DNA from: a virus
Taxonomy: Duplodnaviria; Caudoviricetes
IMG/VR virus record: IMGVR_UViG_3300029305_005387
Strand: one strand, 5' to 3'
Length of the DNA: 64,000 nt
The notes under the pieces were generated by a model. It had not been told where the DNA came from. It did no database searches and saw only the letters and a list, made by a program, of their open reading frames with translations. The position numbers and the translations under genes are program-made. Below, in pieces: positions 11,365-62,637 of this stretch (position 1 is the first letter of the stretch; every line of letters starts with the position of its first letter).

Positions 11365-11844
11365 TTATTTATTTGCTTCTTTATTCATTGATTCAAGTTT
11401 GATATTTTTTTCGATTGTACCTAGTTTAGATTTATATACTTCAAGTACACTATTATGAGCATTTACAATACCGATACACTCATTCAATGCTTTACCATAA
11501 TGATCAAATTGTTTTGTCAATTCTTCCTTTAGTAAAGAATCATACATCAGGATTGCATTGTGAGCTGATTGTGTCATTGCAATAACCATCATTTCTGACA
11601 ATTCTTTTGCACAATCTTCTCCAAATTTATCTGCAATATGATTAAAGCCTTTAACAAATGAAGGAAGCTTCATAATTTCTATACTTGTTTCTACAATTGC
11701 ATTGTATAATACGTAAGCAGGTTCCTGTTGTTCTTCTTCTGCTGTAGATCTTCCCTCTTTAACATCATCGGTTTGCTCTGAACTCTGTTTCATTTTATCT
11801 TTAAAAGATTCTAGATCTTTTATACTATCTTCTAGATTTGGCAT
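11365..11844 (-). CDS. Hypothetical protein
   Basis: 159-aa ORF overlapping the end of the RNAP gene. Confidence 0.65.
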   Translation of the reverse strand: MPNLEDSIKDLESFKDKMKQSSEQTDDVKEGRSTAEEEQQEPAYVLYNAIVETSIEIMKLPSFVKGFNHIADKFGEDCAKELSEMMVIAMTQSAHNAILMYDSLLKEELTKQFDHYGKALNECIGIVNAHNSVLEVYKSKLGTIEKNIKLESMNKEANK

Positions 11845-13978
11845 TTTTCAGTTTTCTCCTTTCTTGTACTTTCTTAGCTAATTCTTTAAGATGTGTAGTA
11901 TCAATCTTTTCTGCATACATGTGATCAAGATAAGAAGATCCATCTTTTTCCTCATATAAAGCGTCACTCAAGATCTGTCGTTTAAGTTCTTGATACGAGA
12001 AACCAATAGTAGGAGCCTTAGTATTCAGTAATGCTTGATTTAATGTAAGAATCTTGTACTCTGGTTTCTCAAATTTCAAGAAATCTGGTCTATGATAAAT
12101 ATCATTTGCATCACGGATAAGTCGGTTAAGAATTACTTCAGCTTGTACACAACGACAACGAATACCTGCACTGATCAATGTTTCAAAGAAATCCTGTGCA
12201 AGTTTACTGTAATCATCATATTTAGATGCATCCTTATTAAGAAGATTCATAATCATATAAAGATTATCTGTAAGACCATTATTCTTGATATCTATATTCA
12301 TCAAACGACCTTCAAGTTCACTTGATAATACATCAAATGGAATTTCATAATATTTCTTTCCACCCTCAGATTTCTTCTCTGCAACGATTTTAAATAACTT
12401 AATAGAAGCAGCATCAATAAACATAGATTCATAGTTAATAATCTCAATTGCTTCATAAGTTTTCGTTCTGGAATCATAGACATAGAAAGGACTTTCAATA
12501 TGATTACCAAATGTATTGTATTCTTGCATGTCATTATCATTAATAGCAAGAACGTTTCCTTCCTCAATACGAATACTAAGATGACCAGTGTTCAACTGCT
12601 GAGTATCATCAAATTCATCTTTGTCTTTAAGATAAATATCTCCAGAGGAATATTTAAAATACTTATGGAATGATTCAGAAAATCCAATCTTATTTGCTGC
12701 AGTGAATAATAAGTGTTTGGTAGAAAGAATATTTTGTGATACTGGTTCTGAATATACTTCAGTATTGAAAATTGCCATACCTGGCATATTCATTACAAGA
12801 TGACTATCTTTACCATAACATACGTGGCATACTTCATCCCCACATGCACACGTTAACAAAGATCTGATATGAATTTGTTTACCTATCAAATGTTTACAAT
12901 CTTCATAGTGAATGAGTTTCAATGGTTCACCGAGGTGTTCACAATACCATCTATTTTCAAGTCTATGTAAGAATGAGCTATCTGTTACAGTTAATGGTAG
13001 TAAATGTTTAGTACCACAATCAAATACAGTTTTAGACAGTGTTAGAGTTCTACTTGATAAAATTAAGTTACGAGAAAGATAACCAGCTTCACCCATATGA
13101 GCTTTATTCATAATTGCAGATAGACGAGCACCTGTAGCTGCAACATAATAGGTAGTCGCATCAATATAGCCTGTGGAGAATCCATTACCCTGCATTGTAT
13201 ATGGAATAACATTACCAGATACATCAGGAATCTGTCCATAAGACAAGAATAATTCTTGAACTTGTTTAGGTTTAATATGATTACCTGCTTTGGAAATATA
13301 CCAAATAGGATTTTTCGTTTCACCCAATGCAGAAATCAATTCATTCGTTTTCTGACGTAATAAATCTTCTACTTCTGCTGTTTGCAATGATTGAGGAATT
13401 TCCAGATTATTTAATTCTCTAATCTTTTCAGAATTCTTATAGTCATTTAAGAATACTGATTCAAATGTCATTATACTTGCACTTGATGTTAGAGAAAATT
13501 CAATTGATGCTTCTTGATATCTTTCAATCATTACTTTTAACAACTCTGAACATCTCTCAAACGGAATGCCGTATTCATTTAGTACGGCTAATACTTTAGA
13601 TTCCAAACCAACACGAAGTTTATCACTCATCATAATACCAATGATGAATGATTCATCCAAGACTTCAATTTGTTTTCGATAATATTTCTGAACTTCATTC
13701 AATTCAATAAGTGGACGCCAAGCATTCAAATTAAGCATGAACTTAGGCATTGATAACTCAAAGATTTGATCATCCTCTTGATAAAATTTAAATTTGATTT
13801 TGTGACTAACACATTCAGGAATTTCAATACATGCACAAATAGCATAGTATACTTTGTAATACAAGTCATCGAATTCTTCATATGTTCTGAGTTTTGATAT
13901 TACTATCAAATCAGGAAACTCTCGTTCACAATCTGCTACTGTCCTGATAACTGGTAATTGATACATTACTGATTCCAT
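11825..13978 (-). CDS. Multisubunit RNA polymerase beta' C-terminal part (probably non-virion RNAP)
   Basis: Bridge-helix region GARLSAIMNKAHMGEAGYLSRNL, DCGT, RSLLTC...VCHVCYG Zn site, EPVSQNILSTKH trigger-loop region; preceded by an early-type motif at 14044-14052. Confidence 0.85.
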   Translation of the reverse strand: MESVMYQLPVIRTVADCEREFPDLIVISKLRTYEEFDDLYYKVYYAICACIEIPECVSHKIKFKFYQEDDQIFELSMPKFMLNLNAWRPLIELNEVQKYYRKQIEVLDESFIIGIMMSDKLRVGLESKVLAVLNEYGIPFERCSELLKVMIERYQEASIEFSLTSSASIMTFESVFLNDYKNSEKIRELNNLEIPQSLQTAEVEDLLRQKTNELISALGETKNPIWYISKAGNHIKPKQVQELFLSYGQIPDVSGNVIPYTMQGNGFSTGYIDATTYYVAATGARLSAIMNKAHMGEAGYLSRNLILSSRTLTLSKTVFDCGTKHLLPLTVTDSSFLHRLENRWYCEHLGEPLKLIHYEDCKHLIGKQIHIRSLLTCACGDEVCHVCYGKDSHLVMNMPGMAIFNTEVYSEPVSQNILSTKHLLFTAANKIGFSESFHKYFKYSSGDIYLKDKDEFDDTQQLNTGHLSIRIEEGNVLAINDNDMQEYNTFGNHIESPFYVYDSRTKTYEAIEIINYESMFIDAASIKLFKIVAEKKSEGGKKYYEIPFDVLSSELEGRLMNIDIKNNGLTDNLYMIMNLLNKDASKYDDYSKLAQDFFETLISAGIRCRCVQAEVILNRLIRDANDIYHRPDFLKFEKPEYKILTLNQALLNTKAPTIGFSYQELKRQILSDALYEEKDGSSYLDHMYAEKIDTTHLKELAKKVQERRKLKNAKSRR

Positions 13979-36677: not shown

Positions 36678-36917
36678 TTATAATTCGTCACAGCAACCTT
36701 GTGAATACAATATTGCACTATCGTGATTTTCTCCTACATCTGATTTCACCGTAACACTAATTTCTATTTCATCAATCAACTGATCATTCAATTCAGTTAC
36801 AAGCTCATCTACGACACTTTTAATGATGTTTCTGTTAATAACTGAATTACTAGCGTTCTTAGGTTTATGACCATCATATTGTTTGCGAGTGATTTTATAT
36901 ACTTTACTCATTTCCAT
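36678..36917 (-). CDS. Hypothetical protein
   Basis: 79-aa ORF overlapping the upstream stop. Confidence 0.5.
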   Translation of the reverse strand: MEMSKVYKITRKQYDGHKPKNASNSVINRNIIKSVVDELVTELNDQLIDEIEISVTVKSDVGENHDSAILYSQGCCDEL

Positions 36918-38007
36918 CCACCAAACCTTTCTGTTTAGTTCTAATACGAATAAGATTCATGTAATCATACATTCCTTCAAAACGTACATAATTCTCACTG
37001 ATCACATCATATTCCATTTCCATCCATACTGTTTCTAATAGTTCAAAGAAATCATCATCTGCCGTACAACCACCCTGATCTTCACCTATATAAATCAGAT
37101 CGATATTCATTTCCATACACACTTTGAGAATATTGTAGGCAAATGGTGATGAATATTCTGGAAAACTCATCAGAACATAGTCATATTCTTTACCGTACTT
37201 TTTAACTGCTTCCACACCATCAATCTTTTCTATGTCTATATATTTATGTTTGAAGAAATCTTCCCATGCAAAGTTATCAGTGACTTTAATATCAACTCCT
37301 CTTTTCTGTAATTCAGCAGCTAAATATGCGGATCCACATCCTACTTCTAAAATTCGTTTACCATCAAAGAATTTTACCATATCATCTATTAATTCCTGAT
37401 TTAATAATGAATATCCGTACAATTTAATATATTTTGATCTGATGCGAGATGCTGTTTGAATTCTATTGAATTTGTCACGGTGTGTAATAGGAACACTTGA
37501 TATGGAATGACGAAGTTGTGATACTGTCGGTAAGATTCCTGTATTTACTTGTCTTACGAACCATTTTTCCGGATAATCTTCTACTAACTTTCCATAGAGT
37601 AATACATTCAATGCTTTGCAAATAGATGAACAATGTTCTTGATTTATTACAGAAAATTTGATATCAATGGAATCAAGGATATCATTTATTGTATTACTCA
37701 AACAACCGTGATAATATGGGATATTTTCCTTATCATCATATAAATACTGAACCATTACCTGTACATTTTGATCTGGCAGCATTTCTTCAAATGTAAAGTC
37801 GCACATCTTCACTGCATAACTTGCGTCTTTATCTTTCTTAATAAGACTAGCTGTGAGTGGAAAATCTAAACTGTTACAAGTAATTCCAAAGCTTGTATTA
37901 CCATCTGCACTGTTTCCATATGTTGGATATGAGATATTGTTCTCGTCATACTTAAGAGATTTAATTAAATTAAGTAGATCTCCAAATCTAAAAATTTCTT
38001 GATTCAT
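36904..38007 (-). CDS. Class I SAM-dependent methyltransferase domain protein
   Basis: ILEVGCGSAY motif I, VTDN, VLMSFP, YIGE..GGCTA. Confidence 0.65.
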   Translation of the reverse strand: MNQEIFRFGDLLNLIKSLKYDENNISYPTYGNSADGNTSFGITCNSLDFPLTASLIKKDKDASYAVKMCDFTFEEMLPDQNVQVMVQYLYDDKENIPYYHGCLSNTINDILDSIDIKFSVINQEHCSSICKALNVLLYGKLVEDYPEKWFVRQVNTGILPTVSQLRHSISSVPITHRDKFNRIQTASRIRSKYIKLYGYSLLNQELIDDMVKFFDGKRILEVGCGSAYLAAELQKRGVDIKVTDNFAWEDFFKHKYIDIEKIDGVEAVKKYGKEYDYVLMSFPEYSSPFAYNILKVCMEMNIDLIYIGEDQGGCTADDDFFELLETVWMEMEYDVISENYVRFEGMYDYMNLIRIRTKQKGLVDGNE

Positions 38008-38066
38008 ATTATGAACCTCCTTTTGTTTTTATTATTTTTCATCTTGGTTACATATTAAGAATATAT
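38003..38066 (-). repeat. Promoter-RBS leader cassette, copy 2
   Basis: See 34610-34683. Confidence 0.7.
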
Positions 38067-38145
38067 TATACAAAAATCAGCTAATACGAATAAAAAAATA
38101 ATAGGAGACCGTAACGGTCTCCTATTATTGAAATTATTTTTGATT

Positions 38146-38664
38146 TTATTTATCGCTAAGGATAGCGAGAGAGATGTTTTCAATTGGACTTACGTCATAC
38201 TTAATAGCAGAAGTTGTTCTATCAATAAGCATGTTTATAGGCGAGAAACCTGCAAACATATCCCAAAACTCTTCCATTTCAAGTCCTAATGTATTTAGTA
38301 CATCTCCATCGAAGTCGGCATTGAGACCTGGGAGGATTGCACTAGGTATGGCTAAGGTGTAATCCTCTGCATCCGGTTTAATCCTTCTGACTCTCATTAA
38401 AAGTATACTTCCGAACGTTATTGTTGGATTTCTGTTAAGAATAATCTTAATATTATCATTCTCAACTATTCTGCACATTACACCATATACGTATGGATCA
38501 AAGTTAAATTTACTTTCTAAGAAATTTGTTGCTTTTGTAATAGTCCAACCTTTATCTTTGATGATATAAGCAAGGATATGTCCTTTAAACTGCTCAATAA
38601 AAGCTTTATAACTCATATCAACTTCATCAATCTTGAGGGTGGGATCTAATACTATGACTTGTCG
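38146..38664 (-). CDS. RNA polymerase beta' N-terminal/catalytic part, exon 2
   Basis: LNRNPT and catalytic NADFDGD; splices to exon 1 to give NFSG|RQVIVLDP, matching the RpoC DYSGRSVIV motif. Confidence 0.9.
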   Translation of the reverse strand, partial: RQVIVLDPTLKIDEVDMSYKAFIEQFKGHILAYIIKDKGWTITKATNFLESKFNFDPYVYGVMCRIVENDNIKIILNRNPTITFGSILLMRVRRIKPDAEDYTLAIPSAILPGLNADFDGDVLNTLGLEMEEFWDMFAGFSPINMLIDRTTSAIKYDVSPIENISLAILSDK

Positions 38665-40031
38665 CATTATCTTCATACTGTATCGCAACTACAGTACCGA
38701 GCTTTTAACTCTGCTACTGCTTTCGCAGTACGACAGTAGAATTTCACTACTGAAGAACCATTACGGTTGATGAGACTATATCTTCATCATATATTCTGTT
38801 ACCAAATATATGATGTCCCTCCATTTCCCATTACTATATTAATATTACTATTAATAACCTCCATTAGCTTTGAGGGGTAATAACCACTATATTATACAAC
38901 GTATTTCTCGTTATACATAGTTAGGTTAATAGTCGTTGAACGTTGTTCTGCATTAATACAGAACCTTCGCTGCCTATGATTATCCAATCCTAAATGATTT
39001 TACCATCCGATAGTCGTTATACTATCTGCTACACTGTACATCACTGTCAGCTGCGGTTATTTAGGCTCTAAGGAACTTCCGGCAATTAAAAGGAAGCAGG
39101 CCAAACAAGTTTATTCATCTGATTGCTGATTTAATTCATAACCAAAGATAAATTCTTCTTCAATTTCATATTCTTTTTCTTTTTCAGAAGATTTATCTAA
39201 TTTACATCGAAATTTTTTCTTGGAAGGATTTAGATAATTATTATCTCTGATACGCCATTTAATATAATTAATATTAGCTTTTGTATCAGGTAAACCTACT
39301 ATCTGTAAAATTTCTTTTTTACTTCGTAATCCTCTTTTTAGTAATTCATCTATCATATTATTTTGCTCTTTAGAACGATCTCCATATGTATTAAATTTTG
39401 GAATATTATATTCACTTCTAATTTCATTCCAATTTCCGTTATATTTTATTCCACTAACAAATGCAGTCGTAACATTTAATTTCTTAGCTATATGATAGAT
39501 GGATTTACCTTTTTCTAACATTTTACAGACTTTTCTAATAGTCTTTTCGTCATGTGATGGTTTTAAACCAGTTTTCATAGCATGTTCAATATTTTCTTTG
39601 AATGATACCCATTCAAGATTATCTACACAATTGTTAGTTTTCACTCCATCAATATGATTCACTTGAGGTTTATTTTCTGGATCAGGGTTAGGGATAAATG
39701 TTAAGGCTACTAACCTATGAACACTATAATGTTTATCCTTTCCATTAATACTTAATGCTACTCTTGGATATCCACCTCGCGTATAATCAATATGAACTCG
39801 CAATTGTTTCCCAGTAACAATATTTCGAACATTACCATATGAACTGATTTCATAGTTTGATTCAATACCATCAGTTTTAAATCTCTTCCATTCTTCTTTC
39901 TTTGATGTAAACGATTCATAATCTTTATAATCAATCATGTTTAAATTCCTCCTTCATATTTTTTACTATTATGTAAGAAGAAATTTAATTTAAAAATCAG
40001 CAATTTATACAGGGATAACCATGTCGATAAA
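38665..40031 (-). mobile_element. Group I intron (1367 nt) carrying an HNH homing endonuclease gene in the P1 loop
   Basis: Core elements AAUUGCCGGAAG, GUUCAACGACUA, AAGAUAUAGUC; ends AUAAUG; IGS GCCUG pairs with exon CAGGU (U-G); P10 ACUUGUU pairs with exon 2 GACAAGU. Confidence 0.9.
39111..39938 (-). CDS. Intron-encoded HNH homing endonuclease (NUMOD4 plus HNH)
   Basis: [22 protein letters not shown]...[17 protein letters not shown]. Confidence 0.92.
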
Positions 40032-51851: not shown

Positions 51852-53573
51852 TTAAAATTCATATATTAAAAAATCCATTAGCGGTGCGAAGGCTGCAACT
51901 TCGGGTTTACAAGAGACGGAAGCCCCGGTGTTCCAGTACGAGGACGAAACCAGAAAGTTCAAGAGGCACGCGAACGCACCGCAATTAGAACCAACGTCCG
52001 AACAACCGCCGAACAGGGCAAACCTGATATCGGTGGTTCTGAACCAACCTCCGTCGCAATATTTCGTTGTTGAAGAACCATTGAGCGTGCTCATGAAGAG
52101 ACCGAAATCGTTGACTTTCATATCATTGATATATCCATAATAGTAGTCATTGTTGACTAAGTTAGAACATACAGGACTAAAGCCAAGATTGATATATCCT
52201 TCACCAGTTTCATTGTAGTCTGTAGCTGTAGATCCATCAGCAGTTCCCTTAGTCATCTTACATTTCATTACACCATTATCCAGAATCAAACCAGCAGTTC
52301 TCTTCCAGATATTACCCCAGAAATGTTCAATACCGAATACCTTAACACCGAGATTTCTCTTGGAAGATCCCCAGAATAATCCCTTATCGTTCATAGTACC
52401 AGTAGGAAGAACACCATTGCCGTCAGAACCAGTAGGCTTATCATTGTAACCGTTTTCATTACCAAGACCAAATACAGACTGTGTATCAGTGGATTTACCA
52501 ATCAATACACAAAGTAATGACAGTAACTGACGGTCAGCAAGTACGTCAATATCCCAGATATCAACGCCTTCAGGGTTGTTTGCTCTAGCTTCCTGAATCT
52601 GGACAGTACCAGTCTGAGATCTAGTAGGACTCTTACCAGAAACAGAACGAAGTTTACCGTCAGTGTCTACCCAACCATCATATGCAGCTCTGTAGAAGTA
52701 AGGCATAATATTACCATTTACATCAGTATGAGCATATGCATGATAAGAATCATCTACCTTAGTTGCTGCGAAGTAGAACTTAGGCTTACGAGGAGCAGTT
52801 ACATCTACCTTCATGTATACAGTAGGAATACCTACCATTACGTTACCTGCACAGTTTTCATCGATAGTAGCAGCTGCACCATTAACTGTCTTAGTATAAT
52901 CGAAACGATCAAGTTCAACGTTAACTGTACCATCGAAGTTAAGAATTACAGGCTTGATATTCTTCAAGAACCATACGTTTGCCCAGTCACCGGATTCAAA
53001 CTTATCAGCAGTCATATCCATGTATGCAGGCTGATATGTAGCATTCTCACCAATGTATCGTACACGATCATATGGATCAGCTTCATCAAGATCTAATTCG
53101 AAACCGAATACTGCAGAAGACTTAGCAGTCATATCCTGAGCGATATCACGAGCAACAGGATTACCACTTGCATCGAAACCAAGGAACTGATTTTCAGTAC
53201 CAATGATCTTGTTCACCTTAGCTTTGTCAGCTGCAGGCATAAGACCAGGTGCAGACTCAGTAGCTGCTCCGTATGTAGTATCCTTTGTAGGAGGTGTATA
53301 ACCCAAAGCTTCAGTTACATTTTCTTTAGTCATCTCACCAAGAATTGTTGCAGCAGATTTATTTTCTACTTTATCCAACCCAAGAGTAGATTTTGTGATG
53401 TTATGAGGGTTTGAAGCTCCAGCATGCTCAGCAATACCAGGGGCTTTCAGAGTTACTTTGGAACCATCCTGTGTCAATTCAACACCATTGGATGCTTCCA
53501 GTGTAATAGCATTTTGACCATTGATTTTGGCAGGATCACCAACGACCTTGCCAAGGTTAATCTGTTTTGCCAT
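51852..53573 (-). CDS. Tail fibre / receptor-binding protein with C-type-lectin-fold C-terminus; DGR target
   Basis: Tail-fibre repeats NPHNITKSTLGLDKVENKS, VTEALGYTP, TTYGAAT...GLM.AADK; CLec-type GIEHFWGNIW; VR at the 3' end. Confidence 0.88.
   Translation of the reverse strand: MAKQINLGKVVGDPAKINGQNAITLEASNGVELTQDGSKVTLKAPGIAEHAGASNPHNITKSTLGLDKVENKSAATILGEMTKENVTEALGYTPPTKDTTYGAATESAPGLMPAADKAKVNKIIGTENQFLGFDASGNPVARDIAQDMTAKSSAVFGFELDLDEADPYDRVRYIGENATYQPAYMDMTADKFESGDWANVWFLKNIKPVILNFDGTVNVELDRFDYTKTVNGAAATIDENCAGNVMVGIPTVYMKVDVTAPRKPKFYFAATKVDDSYHAYAHTDVNGNIMPYFYRAAYDGWVDTDGKLRSVSGKSPTRSQTGTVQIQEARANNPEGVDIWDIDVLADRQLLSLLCVLIGKSTDTQSVFGLGNENGYNDKPTGSDGNGVLPTGTMNDKGLFWGSSKRNLGVKVFGIEHFWGNIWKRTAGLILDNGVMKCKMTKGTADGSTATDYNETGEGYINLGFSPVCSNLVNNDYYYGYINDMKVNDFGLFMSTLNGSSTTKYCDGGWFRTTDIRFALFGGCSDVGSNCGAFACLLNFLVSSSYWNTGASVSCKPEVAAFAPLMDFLIYEF
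51912..52025 (-). repeat. DGR variable repeat (VR)
   Basis: 114 nt, differs from the TR at 13 positions, all TR adenines. Confidence 0.95.
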
Positions 53574-53638
53574 TATTGATTATCTCCTTTCAAATTTTAT
53601 TTTGTAATTTTAATTAATCCCAAAATACAGGAATTAAT

Positions 53639-53995
53639 TTACACTGTTGCAATGAGATAGCCATTTTCATCAATATTGAATGAATATCTCGCTACAGCAT
53701 TATCATCTGTAGTTTCATTCGAATTAAGAATTAAATAACCATCCTCATTGATAGATAGATCTACTTCTGCTTCATCAGGAACATTGATAACGAGATATCC
53801 GCTTGAAGTATCAATATCAAACGCATAATTAACCGTTACATCTAATGCATTAATTTTTGCATTTAATGTTCTCATGTCTGATTCATAGGTAGTTCTACGA
53901 ACATAGTTGTCCTCAACTATCTGGAACACTGCTTGTAGGAGCACATCTAGTCCAGCCTCGTCAAGAACATACATTTTTTCAACTCCTGTGCTCAT
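53639..53995 (-). CDS. Hypothetical protein in the tail-fibre operon
   Basis: Start moved to ATG 53995 (GGAGG RBS); repeated I(D/N)xxGYL motif. Confidence 0.6.
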   Translation of the reverse strand: MSTGVEKMYVLDEAGLDVLLQAVFQIVEDNYVRRTTYESDMRTLNAKINALDVTVNYAFDIDTSSGYLVINVPDEAEVDLSINEDGYLILNSNETTDDNAVARYSFNIDENGYLIATV

Positions 53996-54093
53996 AATTT
54001 GTTTAACCTCCATTTCTTCATAAATTTATAAGGTTGTGATCTGAATACAGGTTCTTAAGGTAAACCCAAAACAATGAAAGTAGGTGTAAAGAT

Positions 54094-57000
54094 ATGAATG
54101 AAGTTTTATTCAATAATCTCGATTACGGAGCATATCAACTCGAGTATGATGATAATTATTATCTTAGCGAGAATATTAAATTTAATATTGCTGAATTTAA
54201 TAAACTCTATACTCGAAAGATACGTCTCCCTGAGGGAAATTCAAACATCATCTATCTCTTATCAAATACGTTCAACGGAGCATTGAATATGTTGAACAAC
54301 ATTATTGTTCCTCCATCTTATAGGAAGTTATATTATCCTCAATATTCCGTTGGAACATTCATGAAGAAGAGATATAGATTAAATGTCACTGATAAAAAGA
54401 CTCGTGATGATTTAATTAAACAGAAAACAAAGTTATCACCATATCAAACAAAGGTACTACCAAATACGCAGAATAACGTTATATTTTCCTGCGACCAGTT
54501 ATACGCAGTAATGAAACCAATTGTAGACTCATTAACTATTCAGCGTTGTTATACTGAATTCTTTCCTGAATTTATTTCTATTTTAGACAAATTATCACCT
54601 TCCAAACCTGCTAATACCAAACCTGATAGTGGTAATAGAATTATCATTATCGATGCAGATACATTTGCATTCAAACAAGGTGCTGGTTTAGAAGAGAATA
54701 AAGCCAATCCATTATATCTACTATATTTATCTTTTTTACGAAATAAGAAAGTAAATAAAAGTGCAGTAGATATTGACATGATGATTTGCTCTAAAAATTT
54801 ATTTTTGAAATTTAATCCTTCAAAAATTACTATGGATCAATGGAATCTCTTCAGAAGAGCTTTATTCAGAATCATGAATGCTAATTTGGATGATTACACA
54901 GATAATCTTACTCCAGAAGAAAAGAATGAACTCAATGAAACTGGAAAAGAAAAAGTTTTATCCAATATCGTAAAAGATACTGTGGAACCATATGTACAGA
55001 ATGTTTCAGGTTCAACTAAAGAAGTTCTTCAACATGCAGTTCAAAAGAAAGTGAAAAAAGAAGCAGCTAAGAAAGCTGCAATGGATGCAGAGATTAAAAA
55101 GGCTATCGGAAATACGAACATTGAAAAACCTGACATTTTCCGTCAAACTATTGAAAATCCTAATTCTGTTTTACATTCCAATCCAGTAGTTTCTCCATTA
55201 TCAAATAAACAGAATAATTTATTCCAATCATTGGCAGGTAGTTACCAATCTCTTACTACTGATACAGGTATGGAAGTCGATGATGAAGACAATTACGATT
55301 ATGATCGTCCTGAAGATACAGAAGAGAATTTAGAAGAGTTTGAAGATGATATCACTGCAGATGCTCAAGAAATTCTGGTAGATGATGAAGAAGTTGCACA
55401 AGAAGTTCTAGATGAAATTCAAAATAATGTAGCTCCTCTTGATAATAAACGCACATCTCCAATCAATAGTGCAAGGGATAAAAAATTAAGAGAAGAGCAA
55501 AAGAAAGTAGTTGTTGGTAAAGAAACAATTGAAGAAATTCTATCAAGAGATGCTTCAAATGTTCCGATTCAGGCTACTGATAAATCTAAAGTAATGAAGA
55601 CGTCAAATAAAAATATGACTCAAATCAAATTTACAAATTTTGACAAAACTTACATCGATGAATTATACATGAAGGATATCGTTGCATGTTTCGATATGTT
55701 AAAGGATAAAGAAACTCCTTTCTATGTAACAGGTATAGATATAAAAGACACTTCTACTACTTTAGATTTTAAAGAAACATGGACAGTTCATTTGAAAGAT
55801 GAAACTGGTAAACGTCATACTGTCAAAGTAGATATTCCTAAATTTCAGAATGATCGTTTCATGCTTATCAATGGTACACGTTTCATTATTCTTAAGCAGA
55901 ACTTCTATAATCCTCTAGTTAAGGATACTCCTGATACAGTTATCCTTACTACTAATTTCAACAAGATTACTATTTGTCGTAAGGCAACTAAATCGTTGAA
56001 TTCTGTTGAACGAATTTTCTCTCTTGTAAAGAAAAGTGGAGATAATAAATTATTCATGCCTGGCGATTCCAGTAAACCGAACATGAAGTATTTATCTTCA
56101 TTAGAGTATGATGAGTTATCAAGAAGAATTTTCCGTTTCAAAACAGATACATGTGAAATTTGTTTCTCTAGAGATTATATCAAAGATAATATGAGTGACA
56201 GCATTCCGACAAATATGAAGGGTAACGAATTCTTTATTGGTATTGAAGGAAATGAACCAATTCTTATCAATGAGGATACTGGCTTAGATAGACATAATCG
56301 TACTATTATTGAAATCATCGAGCAGCACCTTCCTCCTTCTTATAAAGAAACCTATCATTCTATTAAAGGACCTACACAATCAATGTATGTTGAAGCAAAA
56401 CTTGCTGGACAGTTTATCCCTATTATTACAACACTGATTGTATGGAATGGATTGCGTAGAACTCTAGACAGAATGAATATCACTTGGAAATTCGATGATA
56501 AAGCAAAACGAGTTCCTCAATCAACAGCGACAACAAAATACATCAGATTCGCTGATGGTGTACTTGAATATGAATCTCAAACATTTGCTCAATTGATTTT
56601 AAATGGTATTTCAAAGATGCATCCAGAACAATATCGTTTTGAAGACTTTGATTCTGAAATTGGATATGATGAATATGTCTACTCACAATGGGGATCATAT
56701 AACGGAATTACTGAAATCAAACGATTCAATGAATTCCTTGTTGATCCAATTACGAAGCAAGTGTGTAAAGATTTAATGTTACCTGACGATCCTTCTGGTT
56801 TAATGATTCATGCAGTAAAATTATTATGCGACAATGCTTTCGTGTCTAAAGCATCTGATAAATCATATCGTGTAAGATCAGTTGAAATGATCCCATCTAT
56901 TTTATATAGCTGCTTAGCAGATCAATATAAAATTCATGTGAAATCAGGTCGACGAATTCCAATGACATTGAATCAACGTTGTGTTATTACTAAACTTATG

Positions 57001-58530
57001 GCTGAAAAGACTGTAGAACCATATTCAGTTTTGAATCCGGTTGTTGAAGTAAGTAAAACACATACTGTTTCTACAAAAGGTTACAAAGGATCGAACTCTG
57101 ATCACTCTTATGATGAAGAGAAACGTTCATATGATCCAAGTGCAGTTGGTAAGCTCGCAATTTCTACGAGCCCCGACGGCAATGTGGGTATAAATAAAGT
57201 ACTTGTTACAGAACCTACAATTGCTAATGCTAGGGGCTACAGAGAACCAGTAGAAGATATTAATGAATTGAAAGATGTAAATATCTTTTCTCCTGTAGAA
57301 TTACTAACTCCAGGTACTGCTAGAAATGACGATCCAATTAGAACTGCAATTGCAGGTAAACAATCAGGTCACATAGTACCAGTAGTTGATGCATCTCCTG
57401 CATTAATCTCAAATGGTTATGATGAGGCTGTTCAATTCCATCTTTCTGATGACTTTGTTATCAATGCTGAAGAAGATGGAGAAGTGATTGAAGTAAATGA
57501 AGAGATTGGATTCATTGTTGTAAAATATAAATCTGGTAAAACTAGAGCAATTAATACTAAACCAGAAGTTGTTAAAAACTCAGGTGCTGGTTTCTTCCTT
57601 TCTAATCAATTGAAACCTACCTATACAAAAGTAGGTGAAAAATTTAAGAAAGATGAACCTCTTGCGTATCATGATAAATATTTCCGTTATTCCAAGATGA
57701 ATGGTTTGCGATTCTCGATTGGACCTCTTGTAAAGATGGGATTCATGTCTTCTTATAACACATATGAAGATGCAGGTATCTGTACAGAATCACTTGCTGA
57801 AAGAATGAAAACTTCCATTGTATATCAAGAAGTCGGTAAGTTCAAAAAGAATAATAATATTTTATCAATGGTAAAAATTGGCGATCATGTAAACATCGGT
57901 GATACATTAATCAAATTTGATGTTTCCGTAGAAGATAATGAATTAGCAAAATATCTTTCTAAATTAAATGAAGAAAATGCTGAATTATTATCTGAAGAAT
58001 CTAAGTCAGAAATTAAGACTATGCATGCTGGTAAAATAATTGATATCAAAGTGTATTCATTATTGGCACCGGAACAGTTATCAGAGTCTTTGGGAGCTGT
58101 TGTTCAGCAATACTTTGACAAAGGTACTTCTAAGAAAGAATTCTTAGAGAAGTTTGATCAGAATGATAGTATAATGAAAGCTGGTTATCTATTAACTGAC
58201 TCTACTGAACCTGTCAAAAGTAGATATAATTCAATTAAGGGTATTAAGGGCATTGACGTGCTAATTGAAATATATATTGAACACGGTGACGTTATGGGTG
58301 TTGGTGATAAGGTTGCATTATACGGACCTAATAAACAGATCATCTCTGAAATTATTCCAAAGGGATGGGAACCTTATTCTGAATCTAGACCTGATGAAGA
58401 AATAAGTGTACTGACATCTCCTGGTACAATTGCAAGAAGAATGACTAGTAGCATTATCCCAATCTCTGCTGCAATGCGTTGCATGGTCGAGCTGAAACGT
58501 AAGATCAAAGAAGAAATCAAATTCAAATAA
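54094..58530 (+). CDS. RNA polymerase beta, large N-terminal/middle part (probably virion RNAP)
   Basis: STSPDGNVG, DP.RTAIAGKQ..H, YNTYEDA, GDKVA.YGPNKQIIS RpoB motifs; lacks the extreme C-terminus, which 14600-15325 supplies. Confidence 0.88.
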   Translation: MNEVLFNNLDYGAYQLEYDDNYYLSENIKFNIAEFNKLYTRKIRLPEGNSNIIYLLSNTFNGALNMLNNIIVPPSYRKLYYPQYSVGTFMKKRYRLNVTDKKTRDDLIKQKTKLSPYQTKVLPNTQNNVIFSCDQLYAVMKPIVDSLTIQRCYTEFFPEFISILDKLSPSKPANTKPDSGNRIIIIDADTFAFKQGAGLEENKANPLYLLYLSFLRNKKVNKSAVDIDMMICSKNLFLKFNPSKITMDQWNLFRRALFRIMNANLDDYTDNLTPEEKNELNETGKEKVLSNIVKDTVEPYVQNVSGSTKEVLQHAVQKKVKKEAAKKAAMDAEIKKAIGNTNIEKPDIFRQTIENPNSVLHSNPVVSPLSNKQNNLFQSLAGSYQSLTTDTGMEVDDEDNYDYDRPEDTEENLEEFEDDITADAQEILVDDEEVAQEVLDEIQNNVAPLDNKRTSPINSARDKKLREEQKKVVVGKETIEEILSRDASNVPIQATDKSKVMKTSNKNMTQIKFTNFDKTYIDELYMKDIVACFDMLKDKETPFYVTGIDIKDTSTTLDFKETWTVHLKDETGKRHTVKVDIPKFQNDRFMLINGTRFIILKQNFYNPLVKDTPDTVILTTNFNKITICRKATKSLNSVERIFSLVKKSGDNKLFMPGDSSKPNMKYLSSLEYDELSRRIFRFKTDTCEICFSRDYIKDNMSDSIPTNMKGNEFFIGIEGNEPILINEDTGLDRHNRTIIEIIEQHLPPSYKETYHSIKGPTQSMYVEAKLAGQFIPIITTLIVWNGLRRTLDRMNITWKFDDKAKRVPQSTATTKYIRFADGVLEYESQTFAQLILNGISKMHPEQYRFEDFDSEIGYDEYVYSQWGSYNGITEIKRFNEFLVDPITKQVCKDLMLPDDPSGLMIHAVKLLCDNAFVSKASDKSYRVRSVEMIPSILYSCLADQYKIHVKSGRRIPMTLNQRCVITKLMAEKTVEPYSVLNPVVEVSKTHTVSTKGYKGSNSDHSYDEEKRSYDPSAVGKLAISTSPDGNVGINKVLVTEPTIANARGYREPVEDINELKDVNIFSPVELLTPGTARNDDPIRTAIAGKQSGHIVPVVDASPALISNGYDEAVQFHLSDDFVINAEEDGEVIEVNEEIGFIVVKYKSGKTRAINTKPEVVKNSGAGFFLSNQLKPTYTKVGEKFKKDEPLAYHDKYFRYSKMNGLRFSIGPLVKMGFMSSYNTYEDAGICTESLAERMKTSIVYQEVGKFKKNNNILSMVKIGDHVNIGDTLIKFDVSVEDNELAKYLSKLNEENAELLSEESKSEIKTMHAGKIIDIKVYSLLAPEQLSESLGAVVQQYFDKGTSKKEFLEKFDQNDSIMKAGYLLTDSTEPVKSRYNSIKGIKGIDVLIEIYIEHGDVMGVGDKVALYGPNKQIISEIIPKGWEPYSESRPDEEISVLTSPGTIARRMTSSIIPISAAMRCMVELKRKIKEEIKFK

Positions 58531-58562
58531 AAAATAAATAGAGAGGACCAAAACGGTCCTCT

Positions 58563-60521
58563 CTATTTGTTAATCATAATTACATACTCTTTGTTACCAC
58601 TGAAATGTGATTTGTTTACAATTTCATCTACTATATACTCCTTATACTTTACAGTATTATCTACTATAAATACATATCGTTCACATTTAAATCTAGATAG
58701 ACATTCGTCTATCCAATCATCACATGATAGGTCTTTTAGTTCAACATCATCCCAATTCTCTTTCATGTTATACGGAGAGCAGGTAAATAAACATTCATAT
58801 TCTCCAGTGGATTCAAATATATCTTGTTGTATTATAGATGCTTCAAATTGAATATCATATTTCTTTAAGAATTCAATCATTAAGTTCGACTCATTAACAT
58901 GAATCTGACTAATGTCTTGTCCTATATATCTTTTACCTAATGATATTGCTCCTAACATACGTCCTGAGAATCCACTGAATGGATCGAATATTTCATTATA
59001 TTGTGATAAATATTTATAAATAATCATCTTTGCTCTACCTGCACTGAATACGGATACTTTCGGTGCTATTTTGGATACATTAAATCCTTGGAGTATTTTA
59101 TTTGGATTTAAATGAGATTGATAAATGATTCTGTTCTTGATACATTCTTTCAACAGCTCGTCATCCATCCATGCATCATACGGTGAAAGTTCTCCATCTC
59201 TGTGAGCTCTGTAAATAGATGGATGAAAATGTTGTATAAGTCTATCTCCAATACGTGTATTCAATGATAATGAATTATGATATTTATCATTACAATCCAT
59301 TCTATATAATTTATCATATGAACGTAATAATTCTTTATCACTAAATCTCAACTCAGGAAATGGGATAGATCTAAAATGTTTGAATAAATATTCTACGTAT
59401 TCGTCGTAATTAATCATTAATAATTCTATAAGTTCTTTAAAGCATCTACCGATGTTCCCTTCCTGAATTATAAAATGAATTATGTCAGAATCCTCTGGTA
59501 TTGACTGACTTCTCTTTTCATCATATTCTTCTTTACTATGAATTCCATCATAATCACATGAGTCTGCGTGGAAGTAAGATCCATCTAAATCAACTACAGC
59601 TACTAATTCATGACTGAGATTATATATTCCGTAATCCCATGAATGTGCAGATTTATTTGTAAATAATACAATTTCAGGTTTCAAATAAAATTCATTAATC
59701 AAATGAGAATTACTAAACATTTCTTCAAATTTTTGGTGTAATAAATTATTTTTACCTGAAGATGATAAACGTTTTTTAATTAATGTAGCCTTTTGTTCAT
59801 TTGTGAGATTATCGTATAATACTTGTTTCTCCATCGCATATAATATTTTTTGATCGTGAGTTAAATCATGATACCATTTATGAGTTCTTTTATATAATTC
59901 TTTTTTCTCTTCTTCACTCAAGTTTTGATGCCACTGAGACATGGCTTTGGATCGTTCAAGTTTCTCTTCCATAGAAAGAGTTGCATTATATTCTTTCATT
60001 CGTTGAGATAATTCTTGTCTTTTAATAGCTTTTTCTTCTTCAGATAAATTAATCCACCATTTTCTTCCAATGACAGATTTCTCCTCATCTGTTAGTGAAT
60101 CACGTTTATCTTTCAAAGCTTTAATCATTGGAGTAACTCGTTTCATTTTATCTTTATCAGAAACTTTTCTCCAATGACGTTTTAATCCTTTAGAATTCTT
60201 TTTATTAATATTATTCCATTCTTCTTTAGATCTTTTGGATAGTTGATCTTTAGTTCTTTGAGCATATTTCTCTTTATCTTGATCCGATAGATTCTGATAA
60301 TGATCTATATGCTTCTGTCTAAACTTTTCCTGATCTTCTTTAGATAAATTAGAAAACCAATTTTTCTTTGCTAATTTTGTATGTTCTTTCATACATGATT
60401 GACATAAATTAGGAATATTACGTTTAGTACGTATTCTTTGATTGTCTTTAGAAATTTGATACTGGCCTTTACATCTGTCACATATTAAATCTATCATAAC
60501 TTTTTCTACCATATTATTCAC
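58563..60521 (-). CDS. Fusion of Zn ribbon, tandem helical repeats, Vsr/DUF559-like nuclease and DNA methyltransferase-like domain
   Basis: CDRC...CQSC; about ten (W/Y)xxL(S/T)xE(E/Q)K repeats; WDYGI...VDLDGSYFH; IFDPFSGFSGRMLG...YIGQD...FTCSPY. Confidence 0.6.
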   Translation of the reverse strand: MNNMVEKVMIDLICDRCKGQYQISKDNQRIRTKRNIPNLCQSCMKEHTKLAKKNWFSNLSKEDQEKFRQKHIDHYQNLSDQDKEKYAQRTKDQLSKRSKEEWNNINKKNSKGLKRHWRKVSDKDKMKRVTPMIKALKDKRDSLTDEEKSVIGRKWWINLSEEEKAIKRQELSQRMKEYNATLSMEEKLERSKAMSQWHQNLSEEEKKELYKRTHKWYHDLTHDQKILYAMEKQVLYDNLTNEQKATLIKKRLSSSGKNNLLHQKFEEMFSNSHLINEFYLKPEIVLFTNKSAHSWDYGIYNLSHELVAVVDLDGSYFHADSCDYDGIHSKEEYDEKRSQSIPEDSDIIHFIIQEGNIGRCFKELIELLMINYDEYVEYLFKHFRSIPFPELRFSDKELLRSYDKLYRMDCNDKYHNSLSLNTRIGDRLIQHFHPSIYRAHRDGELSPYDAWMDDELLKECIKNRIIYQSHLNPNKILQGFNVSKIAPKVSVFSAGRAKMIIYKYLSQYNEIFDPFSGFSGRMLGAISLGKRYIGQDISQIHVNESNLMIEFLKKYDIQFEASIIQQDIFESTGEYECLFTCSPYNMKENWDDVELKDLSCDDWIDECLSRFKCERYVFIVDNTVKYKEYIVDEIVNKSHFSGNKEYVIMINK

Positions 60522-60780
60522 CTAATGCTTTCTTGAGTGCTTCCGTAGTATCTTTAATCTTATCTGCATTCATTAACATGTGAACTATATTCGCTACTTC
60601 AGCATCAATTTTCTTTTTACATTCTTCTGAATCACAAGCGTTTGTATAATTCTTTCCTGTCATTATATCATTTGGAATTGCAAATTTATTATTACAAAAT
60701 CTACATGATTTAATAGTAACATTCTCCGGAATTTCTTTTCCTTCTTCTAATATGTACATATGTGGAATTAACATATTCAA
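60514..60780 (-). CDS. Small Zn-ribbon protein, paralog of 63767-63985
   Basis: CRFC...C....C; ends LKKALGE. Confidence 0.6.
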   Translation of the reverse strand: MNMLIPHMYILEEGKEIPENVTIKSCRFCNNKFAIPNDIMTGKNYTNACDSEECKKKIDAEVANIVHMLMNADKIKDTTEALKKALGE

Positions 60781-60911
60781 TCACCTCTTTCTTCTATAGA
60801 ATATATCATAATTATTTATTTAAAAGAGAGACGGAAAATATTAAATAATTTTAATCGAACGCACCAACTCAATATTTATTGGGGTTTCCCAATAGGGATT
60901 TGTGGTACGAG

Positions 60912-61025
60912 AGGTTTGCCCTGTTCGGCGGTAATTCGAACAATGGTTCTAATTGCGGTGCGTTCGCGTGCAACTTGAACAATCTGGTTTCGAACTCGAA
61001 CTGGAACAACGGGGCTTCCGTCTCT
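60912..61025 (+). repeat. DGR template repeat (TR)
   Basis: Non-coding, AAC/AAT-rich (11 AAY codons in the target frame), immediately upstream of the RT; matches the VR except at adenines. Confidence 0.95.
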
Positions 61026-61210
61026 CTTTTATCCGTAAAATCGGGGATTTAAAATTTTTAATGTATCGCCTATTCCTGACCTCATGGTCGAAATTTGCCC
61101 CAGCTTCGTCAATTCGTTAGTAGCCCGTCGAAAGCGAATGAAGGGGATAAAAGAAGGGTTAAAAATAACGGGCTATATTTGTATTTAAGGAATCGAGGTT
61201 ACTTTGTAAC
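61026..61210 (+). ncRNA. DGR spacer RNA between TR and RT
   Basis: GC-enriched, with stems such as TAGCCCGT (61121-61128)/ACGGGCTA (61168-61175). Confidence 0.55.
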
Positions 61211-62311
61211 ATGAAATCATATGGTTATCTCTGGGAGAAATTCATTTCTAAAGACAATATAAGATTATGTATAAAGCGTGCTGCCATTGGTAAAAAGAAA
61301 CGAAAATCAGTTAAACGTGTCATGGAGAATATCGACAAGTTCGTCGATATAATCCATGATTACGCACTGAATTTCAAAAATTGTTCACATGAAGAAATTA
61401 AAATATTAGATGGTAATTCTGGTAAAGAAAGGCTTATAATAGTTCCTAGATTTAAGGAACACGTAATACATCATATGGTCGTTGAAGTAATGACCGAAAT
61501 ATTCACGAAGGGTATGTATAAGCACACATACTCTTCGATTCCTGGACGAGGCTTACATAAAGCCATGAAAAAGATGAAAGCATGGATCAAGAAAGATCCA
61601 AAGAATGTGAAATACTGTTTAAAATTAGACATCAAAAAATTCTTTAATTCAATTAATCATGATATACTCAAAGAAAAACTTCATAAAACTATACGAGATA
61701 AACGATTTTTAAAAGTTGTAGATGAAATTATAGATGCTTCCGATAATGGAATACCTTTAGGATTTTATACGTCACATTGGTTTGCAAATTGGTTATTACA
61801 ACCATTAGATCACTTCATTAAAGAAGTTTTAAAAGTAAAATATTATGTAAGATACATGGATGATATGGTCTTGTTTGGATCCAATAAGAAGAAACTTCAT
61901 AAAGCTAAAGAAGCAATTGAAAACTTTTTACGAGATAAACTCAAACTTAAATTGAAAGAAAATTGGCAATTATTTAGATTTGATTATATTAAGAATGGTA
62001 AACATAAGGGTAGAGCCCTTGATTTCGTTGGATTTAAATTCTATAGAGATAAAATCACTTTACGTAAAAATATAATGTTAAGATTAACACGAAAAGCTAA
62101 GAAGATAGAAAAGAAAGGTAAGTTCACAATTCATGATGCAAGACAACTAATGGCTTGGTTAGGATGGATAGATTGGACTGACACTTACAACGTATATAAG
62201 AAATACATAGCTCCTTATATAAACTTCAAGAAATGTAGGAAGCGTATTTCACAATATGATAAGAAGCACTCAGAAATGCTCAAAATTCTAGAATTAAAGG
62301 AGGCAGCATAA
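61211..62311 (+). CDS. DGR reverse transcriptase
   Basis: 366 aa; GKER.I..P.F, Y.SIPGRG.H, LKLDIKKFF.SI.H, GIPLGFYTSHWFAN, YVRYMDD, DFVG; no maturase or endonuclease domain. Confidence 0.95.
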   Translation: MKSYGYLWEKFISKDNIRLCIKRAAIGKKKRKSVKRVMENIDKFVDIIHDYALNFKNCSHEEIKILDGNSGKERLIIVPRFKEHVIHHMVVEVMTEIFTKGMYKHTYSSIPGRGLHKAMKKMKAWIKKDPKNVKYCLKLDIKKFFNSINHDILKEKLHKTIRDKRFLKVVDEIIDASDNGIPLGFYTSHWFANWLLQPLDHFIKEVLKVKYYVRYMDDMVLFGSNKKKLHKAKEAIENFLRDKLKLKLKENWQLFRFDYIKNGKHKGRALDFVGFKFYRDKITLRKNIMLRLTRKAKKIEKKGKFTIHDARQLMAWLGWIDWTDTYNVYKKYIAPYINFKKCRKRISQYDKKHSEMLKILELKEAA

Positions 62312-62313
62312 CT

Positions 62314-62637
62314 ATGGAAGTAAAATTCAAAACAAGTCGTTCTAGCATTCGACCTGAATTGCTAGACAAAACTAGTTCCAAAACTCAGGTATTCGTTCGT
62401 CAGAACATCAAAGAAGTTATGGAAAAAGATCAGGAAGGTAATGACGTTACTACATTCGAGTTTGAGGAAGCTAGACTTTCTAAACAGGAATATGCTCTTT
62501 ATGTAGTAGCTAATGCCCTTCAGGATGCCGACGTTGAAGTTCAGTTGGCATTAGCAGAACTTGCTGAGATGGTTGACGCAAGCAATACTAATATGGAACT
62601 TGCTCTTGCAGAACTTGCTGAAGCAATGATGGCTTAA
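62314..62637 (+). CDS. Hypothetical tail-associated protein (XkdW-like position, upstream of a CD1375-type gene)
   Basis: 107 aa, duplicated LALAELAE C-terminal motif, GGAGG RBS. Confidence 0.55.
   Translation: MEVKFKTSRSSIRPELLDKTSSKTQVFVRQNIKEVMEKDQEGNDVTTFEFEEARLSKQEYALYVVANALQDADVEVQLALAELAEMVDASNTNMELALAELAEAMMA

Follow-up and report, generated by a model that had tools for sequence, protein, structure and literature searches.

Does a phage that carries RNA polymerase genes of its own also have a diversity-generating retroelement (DGR) in operation, and could such an element still work with its target gene kilobases away on the opposite strand? These questions are raised by a stretch of 64,000 nucleotides from the virus record IMGVR_UViG_3300029305_005387 (Duplodnaviria; Caudoviricetes), which we call the window and in which a first-pass annotation had placed a DGR made up of a template repeat (TR), a variable repeat (VR) in a tail-fibre gene and a reverse transcriptase (RT). 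Among the known ways in which phages rewrite their receptor-binding proteins, DGRs are the principal one. The assignment holds up in our analysis, as the TR and VR differ at adenines only, the nearest solved relative of the RT is one that we take to be the Bordetella phage DGR RT, and the target has the fold of DGR variable proteins. We consider it very probable that the window carries a complete and recently active DGR of the accessory-free TR-RT kind, in a gut jumbo phage of ~259 kb with homologues of multisubunit RNA polymerase (RNAP). How such elements work is well known, and in gut phages they are very common; new are only the lineage of the phage and a layout that is both split and inverted.

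An ungapped comparison of the TR, on the plus strand, with the VR, on the minus strand, reproduced exactly the annotated coordinates, length and mismatches. The two repeats align over 114 nt with zero gaps and 13 mismatches, 13/13 of which fall on TR adenines (hypergeometric p = 2.6e-11, given 23 adenines per 114 TR bases), and at both flanks the similarity breaks off sharply. The VR is in frame with the 573-aa open reading frame (ORF) of the target gene, 20 codons remaining from its end to the stop, and in the corresponding frame the TR contains 11 AAY codons and one AGG. Eight of the 11 AAY codons are altered in the VR (to TGT, GAC, GTT, CTC, TTT, TCC, TAC and ACC), the same eight codons that had been read from the sequence before. 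An NNY codon specifies 15 residues and zero stops, and the upper bound of 15^11 protein variants already quoted for this element computes to about 8.7e12. The final 16 nt (CGGGGCTTCCGTCTCT) are GC-rich, are the same in TR and VR and are followed by unrelated sequence, which fits a putative initiation of mutagenic homing pair (IMH/IMH*). When the adenine positions were left free, no further copies of the TR were found elsewhere in the 64-kb window.

As the annotation had stated, an intact RT gene follows the TR, its start lying 185 nt downstream of the TR end. The catalytic YMDD motif occupies RT residues 215-218, and 30 relatives have both YMDD and Arg74 without exception. The top solved match to the protein is 8ub7 (E 1e-28), a 328-aa reverse transcriptase (entries 8ub7-8ube) which we take to be the DGR RT of the Bordetella phage, group II intron RTs scoring lower (5e-20). 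In the Bordetella phage enzyme, Arg74 and Ile181 were shown to favour adenine mutagenesis (PMC7826257), and their counterparts in the window RT are Arg74 and Leu184. DGR RTs are also marked by the signature [I/V/L]GxxxSQ, which replaces QGxxxSP (PMC7826257); the window RT reads LGFYTSH here, with the hydrophobic first residue and GxxxS kept and the last residue H instead of Q.

The AlphaFold2 model of the target protein, built with 33 homologues, has a mean predicted local distance difference test score (pLDDT) of 82, with values >90 over residues 160-555 and a low-confidence part at residues 1-150. Searched against the PDB, it matched TaqVP best (5vf4, E 6e-12), followed by Mtd (1yu1), formylglycine-generating enzymes and TvpA (2y3c). 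Since the top fold matches are solved DGR variable proteins, the model places the VR within the C-type-lectin (CLec) fold usual for DGR diversification. The view of the target as a tail fibre is supported by its membership of the tail family phrog_5302 and by a 76-kb relative rated complete (L049; we number related loci with an L), in which the target homologue is the last gene of a siphovirus tail module of tape measure, Dit, tail protein and tail fibre. Behind this homologue come a TR, an RT, an orf107-like gene and a lysis-type gene. At 90% identity the protein cluster of the target has two members only. On a 21,166-bp contig of the European Nucleotide Archive (ENA), four paralogues of ~900 aa (P0002-P0005) are each 44-51% identical to ~75% of the target, and this contig may represent a multi-target array.

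Table 1. Positions of the DGR components and of other genes discussed in the text, in window coordinates.
Feature	Position	Strand	Remarks
Target gene, 573-aa tail-fibre-like protein with C-terminal CLec fold (modelled) carrying the VR	51852-53573	-	phrog_5302 'tail protein', E 3.3e-82
VR	51912-52025	-	38 codons near the 3' end of the target gene; 114-nt match to TR
5' leader of the presumed TR RNA	60821-60865	+	two segments complementary to TR
TR	60912-61025	+	non-coding; 114-nt match to VR; 23 adenines (22 within the 11 AAY codons)
RT-18-like structured RNA (Rfam RF03021) in the TR-RT spacer	61078-61155	+	33.1 bits, E 2.5e-4, full model length
DGR reverse transcriptase, 366 aa	61211-62311	+	RVT_1 E 3.5e-21; phrog_1423 E 1.4e-108
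orf107, small acidic protein, 107 aa, isoelectric point (pI) 4.4	62314-62637	+	starts 2 nt past the RT stop
orf124, small acidic ORF	53639-54013	-	between target and RNAP beta in L001, L003, L008 and L082
RNAP beta-subunit homologue, 1478 aa	54094-58530	+	phrog_14872 E 2.3e-132; phrog_3148 E 6.8e-129; Rpb2_6 weak
orf652 and orf88, between RNAP beta and TR	58563-60780	-	absent at this position in L001 and L082
Polyphosphate kinase homologue	9522-11279		PP_kinase_C_1 E 5e-38; PP_kinase_C E 3e-33
Second beta-like protein	11825-13978		phrog_3015 E 6.5e-53
Beta-prime fragment, 180-aa ORF	38146-38688		Rpb1_2 (Rpb1 domain 2), 33.3 bits (cut-off 25.3)

Evidence that the element has been at work comes from natural alleles, compared between samples on assembled contigs. 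L081, a contig of 3.3 kb that comes from another ENA sample, shares 97.5% identity with the window and carries a second allele of the VR, which differs from the window TR at 17 adenine positions and at 0 of the 91 non-adenine positions. Between the window VR and the L081 VR, 16 of the 114 positions differ, all of them TR adenines, compared with 45 of 1608 nt in the rest of the gene. Because the two alleles differ at these 16 sites and all are TR adenines, we read the element as having been active, and recently so. The annotation had suggested looking for adenine-specific polymorphism in the VR: the second allele supplies it, and the answer is one between samples only. Two non-jumbo relatives behave alike, L011 and L013 having identical TRs and VRs that differ at 22 sites, all TR adenines; L003 and L008 were set aside as an allele pair, being out of register through an indel and having the same VR core. 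Altogether, 45 of the 86 loci with related RTs have an A-biased TR/VR pair of their own. An exact-pattern scan of the JGI metagenome contigs and IMG/VR with the TR, all adenines replaced by N, gave no matches, and a megablast search with the locus found no matching sequence among GenBank phages.

The window phage was found in 24 public runs from animal faeces and gut, goat gut included, and in the four runs whose contigs were placed on the window the coverage is piecewise, with breaks near the TR and the VR. The contigs L083, L085 and L086 and those from Logan likewise break around window positions 60935-61100 and 52090-52200, that is, at the TR or shortly before the VR is reached. Short contigs from other samples (L084) are 100% identical across orf88, TR and RT, the TR itself included.

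The cassette is a feature of a whole clade of phages. RT identity to the window is 72% in L001/L002 and L082, 59% in L003/L008 and 53% in L014/L015, and all of these RTs lie beside an RNAP beta gene whose product is 69%, 55% and 53% identical to that of the window, respectively. The relatives also share homologues of orf124, the target, orf107, orf418 and the DNA polymerase B in the neighbourhood. At least five related contigs have the cassette beside the same RNAP gene, and some of these genomes are estimated at ~270-285 kb: CheckV rates the 118.7-kb and 120.8-kb relatives as 44-45% complete and a 39-kb record as 14% complete, so that genomes of ~270-280 kb are expected, and two related contigs measure 282,511 bp (L082) and 283,941 bp. 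In the RT tree, the five distinct RTs adjacent to RNAP beta form one group (support 99/73, present in 98% of the bootstrap trees) inside a larger, well-supported clade to which the RTs of phages of ordinary size, such as L049, also belong. Given that the RTs of the RNAP-adjacent cassettes form one clade, the tree indicates that the whole phage lineage has kept the DGR cassette.

Gene order within this clade accounts for the unusual layout of the window. L015, L003 and L008, which branch more deeply, have the canonical layout, with RNAP beta (-) followed by orf124 (+), target (+) with the VR, TR and RT (+), so that the target adjoins the TR. In the window, L001/L002 and L082 it is target (-), orf124 (-), RNAP beta (+), TR and RT (+), which puts the VR on the opposite strand at 6.7-8.9 kb from the TR in the window, L001 and L082 (8.9 kb in the window). 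The RNAP beta gene, which is no part of the DGR, separates VR from TR in the window, and all jumbo relatives have it next to the cassette. The block of target, orf124 and RNAP beta is thus inverted relative to TR-RT in the subclade of the window, and it is this inversion that explains the 8.9-kb separation, which we interpret as a lineage-specific rearrangement of a once-adjacent target-TR-RT cassette. The rearrangement is evidently compatible with homing. L001 and L082, both with the inverted layout, have kept A-biased TR/VR pairs of their own and, since both VR alleles described above occur in phages with the present gene order, diversification has gone on after the rearrangement. The simplest reading, with an unrooted tree, is that an ancestor of the jumbo clade acquired the four-part module once and that the module was then vertically inherited and later rearranged. 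The orf652 homologue of L014 lies across the RNAP gene from its position in the window. L014 has the same RT sequence as L015, without a target between the RNAP gene and the RT and with no TR/VR pair detected, and it may be a deletion variant or the carrier of a remote target.

Several observations weigh against a complete, recently active element. None of the 26 small ORFs of the window matches Avd (PF05635); Bordetella phage BPP-1 requires Avd, and for this reason the biochemical details must differ from those of the model system. A GC-rich hairpin 3' of the VR was not found either, a 76-nt DNA fold across the VR end having an energy of -5.4 kcal/mol (z 0.54 against shuffles). The target of the window phage lies outside any recognisable tail module, and the label 'tail fibre' consequently rests on homology. 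L081, which provides the second allele, is a short contig that does not reach the TR of its strain, and that TR is assumed to be identical to the one in the window. The public runs consist of pre-assembled contigs, and no RNA, cDNA or within-sample VR variation was observed. Finally, the RT signature finishes in SH rather than SQ. The last residue is Q in most of 85 related RTs and H in 14, which makes SH, by this comparison, a subclade variant; in the Bordetella RT (bRT), exchanging Q for P at the same position did not alter misincorporation (PMC7826257).

Avd is missing from the relatives as well, a six-frame search of five related phage records having found none while a control genome gave a signal; the window ORF and six-frame searches together led us to reject an Avd hidden as a small ORF. 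In most relatives the gap between VR and TR is only ~130-280 nt, which leaves no space for a gene between them. With no Avd found, we file the window element by its gene content under the accessory-free TR-RT type, Architecture A, rather than Architecture B (avd-TR-RT), the BPP-1 type. A different small protein accompanies the RT. The orf107 family, as collected with jackhmmer, lies directly downstream of the RT, often overlapping it, in ~60 of 78 related loci, and its mean pI is 4.5 +/- 0.3. In 10 of 32 family members there is a C-terminal Phage_tail_APC (tail-assembly-chaperone) domain, and in L025 an orf107-type domain is fused in frame to the RT (residues 367-441 of the RT ORF). An Atlas look-up placed a 451-aa RT cluster among the structural neighbours of orf107, a weak match (TM 0.45) to be taken as a lead only. 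We lean slightly towards orf107 being a neighbour of the tail-fibre-chaperone type that travels with the cassette. That it is instead an accessory to the DGR, on a par with the acidic protein which Wu et al. call 'CH1', is a tentative idea, which we think rather doubtful. CH1 is itself acidic (pI 4.7, 160-169 aa) and occurs only in avd-less DGRs (PMC5758913); the 107-aa orf107 recalls it, being acidic and adjacent to the RT.

The RNA that would serve as template has structured elements on both sides of the TR. In the presumed 5' leader, 16 nt (60821-60836) are exactly complementary to 61016-61031, which comprises the TR 3' end and TR-specific flank, and 10 nt (60856-60865) are exactly complementary to the mid-TR segment 60957-60966. 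In L001 and L082 the shorter, 10-nt helix carries a single compensatory change (CGAACGCGCC with GGCGCGTTCG), and both helices are present in the minimum-free-energy fold (z -2.9). The energy of the duplex between leader and TR 3' end has a z of -4.5 in the window, -3.1 in L001 and -1.9 in L082, with little or nothing in ~28 other relatives. We thus rejected the idea of a clamp general to the clade, as it stands out only in the window and L001 and is a subclade feature at most.

In the TR-RT spacer lies an element that resembles the Rfam motif RT-18. Its score does not reach the gathering threshold of 41.3 bits; at the same spacer position L005, L006, L011, L012 and L049 have RT-18 at 45-51 bits, above gathering. 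The first hairpin of the element covaries among the relatives (GACC/GGUC, CACC/GGUG, UACC/GGUA). We call the window element RT-18-like and regard it as a divergent member whose inner stem is shortened, and the data make RT-18 the TR-RT spacer RNA of the DGR clade to which the window belongs. Weinberg et al. showed that BPP-1 has the RT-10 motif in its TR-RT spacer and speculated that further RT motifs play this part in other DGRs (PMC5737381).

Taken together, the element may be pictured as follows. A transcript would comprise a short leader, the 114-nt TR and the RT-18-like structured spacer. The RT would reverse-transcribe the TR and insert random bases opposite the 23 template adenines, and the resulting cDNA would be exchanged for the VR in the 3' end of the target gene, with homing presumably starting at the GC-rich end common to both repeats. 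The outcome would be up to ~9e12 variants of the ligand-binding face of a CLec tail-fibre-like protein, most likely switching the host receptor that is bound. We infer the RNA and cDNA steps by homology with Bordetella phage BPP-1, and the part in receptor binding and the consequences for host range are likewise inferred. A broader proposal, which we regard as quite unlikely as a whole, is that mutagenic retrohoming is stable and vertically inherited in a clade of large, probably strictly lytic phages with their own RNAPs, in which the role of Avd is taken by RNA structure (the leader-TR clamps and the RT-18 element), by a small acidic protein whose translation is coupled to that of the RT or by both, and that the constant adjacency to RNAP beta is functional, e.g. 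in timing TR transcription.

Could the repeats instead be the remains of a DGR that has decayed or lies dormant? In that case the TR/VR pattern would reflect ancestral activity, and homing would have ended once the target had moved 8.9 kb and been inverted. The remote VR on the other strand would fit such a history, as would the missing Avd and the missing hairpin after the VR. We nevertheless consider it very unlikely, given that the two VR alleles, from phages 97.5% identical and with the inverted layout, differ at 16 sites which are all TR adenines, that RT, TR and RT-18-like element are intact, that L082 and L001 keep their A-biased TR/VR pairs, and that DGRs are known to use non-adjacent targets (PMC5758913). 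Nor does the linkage of VR and TR look like the product of an assembly in which TR-RT and target, coming from different phages, were joined at the repeat, an explanation to which we give almost no credence. Several public contigs do stop at the TR or just before the VR. The joint, however, would have to fall inside the repeat, yet the unique RNAP beta, orf652 and orf88 genes separate VR and TR; contigs from other runs span gene junctions between the two, the same gene order recurs in L001/L002 and the 282.5-kb L082, and the RT tree and RNAP beta identities order the relatives alike. With two independent assemblies, L001/L002 from IMG/VR and L082 from ENA, sharing the gene order, the risk of a chimera is low.

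The identity of the target is the point at which a different interpretation deserves most thought. The DGR may be real and the target another adhesin, exposed on the virion or secreted, e.g. one with mucus, other cells or a defence factor as its ligand, without any switching of tropism. In the window the target is surrounded by genes for replication and transcription (DNA polymerase B, RNAP beta) and not by a tail module, its first 150 residues are modelled with low confidence, and DGR targets with other roles are known from gut phages, e.g. the tentaclins (PMC10743442). On the other side, the protein belongs to the phrog_5302 'tail protein' family, its homologue in the complete 76-kb L049 is terminal in the tail module, and its fold matches Mtd, the receptor-binding protein of BPP-1. 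We therefore hold such an adhesin to be unlikely, though worth keeping in mind, and retain the tail-fibre-like ligand-binding protein as the probable product of diversification.

The size and gene content of the host bear on the claim that it is a jumbo phage with multisubunit RNAPs of its own, which is well founded: the target and RT proteins of the window are recorded on a contig of 259,424 bp, above the 200-kb limit for a jumbo genome, and beta and beta-prime homologues are present. Among annotated proteins, those nearest to the RNAP beta protein come from Staphylococcus and Bacillus PBS1-type jumbo phages, with ~32% identity over ~65% of the protein. The beta-prime fragment adjoins a NUMOD4/HNH homing endonuclease gene, both lying within 36904-39938, an arrangement that fits polymerase genes split by mobile elements. 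In some relatives the RNAP beta matches come in two pieces, ~1.3-1.4 kb apart (L003 1468-7153, L008 1403-7186, L014 2133-8154, L015 2-5909), which suggests an intron, an intein or a homing-endonuclease insertion. In PBS1 an HNH endonuclease is annotated between two beta pieces, whereas the beta gene of the window is uninterrupted. The window also encodes a divergent family B DNA polymerase, gyrase A and an NAD-dependent ligase. No Pfam or PHROG family match was found for orf124, and the sole family match for orf652 and orf88 is a weak one to phrog_12517. The N-terminal half of orf652 (58563-60521) is repetitive and Lys/Glu-rich, and its C-terminal half shows, by eye, motifs like those of DNA methyltransferases (FDPFSGFSG, TCSPY), with no Pfam match.

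How does this element compare with described DGRs? With that of BPP-1 (mtd-avd-TR-brt) it has in common the A-specific transfer from TR to VR at the adenines of AAY codons, a TR that closely precedes the RT and is separated from it by a structured RNA spacer, and a VR at the 3' end of a gene of the tail receptor-binding type with a CLec fold, Mtd being among the top fold matches. It differs in lacking Avd and the hairpin after the VR, in the SH motif of the RT, in a spacer RNA of the RT-18 type where BPP-1 has RT-10 (PMC5737381), and in a target 8.9 kb off on the opposite strand. BPP-1 is, moreover, a temperate phage of 42 kb, whereas the window comes from a 259-kb phage with RNA polymerase genes. 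Closer parallels exist among the DGRs surveyed by Wu et al. in 2018, in which Architecture A, the TR-RT core, made up 29% and Lineage 3 was avd-less (PMC5758913). Architecture A1/Lineage 3 elements share with the window the TR-RT core without avd, HRDC or MSL, the single CLec-type target, the phage carrier and a non-adjacent target; avd-less cassettes and non-adjacent targets within phage genomes had thus already been described (PMC5758913).

The nearest cassettes are those of small gut siphophages (Butyrivibrio Arawn and Idris, Lactobacillus LBR48, Faecalibacterium FP_Epona, and IMG/VR contigs such as L049 and L011), whose RTs are 37-54% identical to that of the window. They share the phrog_5302 target family and the order target, TR, RT-18 RNA, RT and small acidic ORF. 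There, however, the cassette ends a normal tail module in genomes of 30-76 kb, whereas in the window it is split by an inversion and sits beside RNA and DNA polymerase genes in a genome of ~260 kb. In genome size and polymerase genes, the host resembles the cultured jumbo phages Bacillus AR9/PBS1 and Staphylococcus MarsHill, Madawaska, S6 and DC4, which have genomes of 250-270 kb and RNAP genes split or interrupted by homing endonucleases, as in the window phage. For those Staphylococcus jumbo phages a retron-like RT has been reported, with no TR, VR, IMH or Avd found and with the express statement that it is no DGR (bioRxiv 10.1101/2020.12.14.422802; PMC10638138). The window phage, unlike them, carries what we read as a true DGR.

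Our full-text search of the literature for DGRs together with jumbo, huge or mega phages turned up no account of a DGR in any jumbo phage that has an RNA polymerase of its own. The annotation had singled out the carrier as the unusual part. This stands insofar as we found no earlier description for the host lineage, a modest novelty, and it needs tempering, as the mechanism is a known one and the cassette a clade-wide feature rather than a one-off. In gut phages DGRs number in the tens of thousands, occurring in 85.7% of RT-bearing high-quality genomes, mostly of lysogenic myoviruses (PMC8241571), and they have been associated with broad host range and high prevalence (bioRxiv 10.1101/2025.11.01.686033). 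Large DGR surveys miss remote targets by design (PMC8144416).

We believe that the general picture of how DGRs function is left unchanged by this locus, whose use lies in a sound annotation and in a set of data for comparison. On a practical matter, surveys that rely on short-read contigs will miss a DGR split in this way. The orphan Rfam motif RT-18 gains a defined place, between TR and RT in a clade of DGRs that lack Avd, where it forms the spacer. For the biology of these phages, our reading would extend the range of DGR carriers to a lineage of ~260-285 kb with its own RNAPs, whose cultured relatives are reportedly without DGRs, and would provide a natural case of homing to a remote and inverted target within a phage genome.

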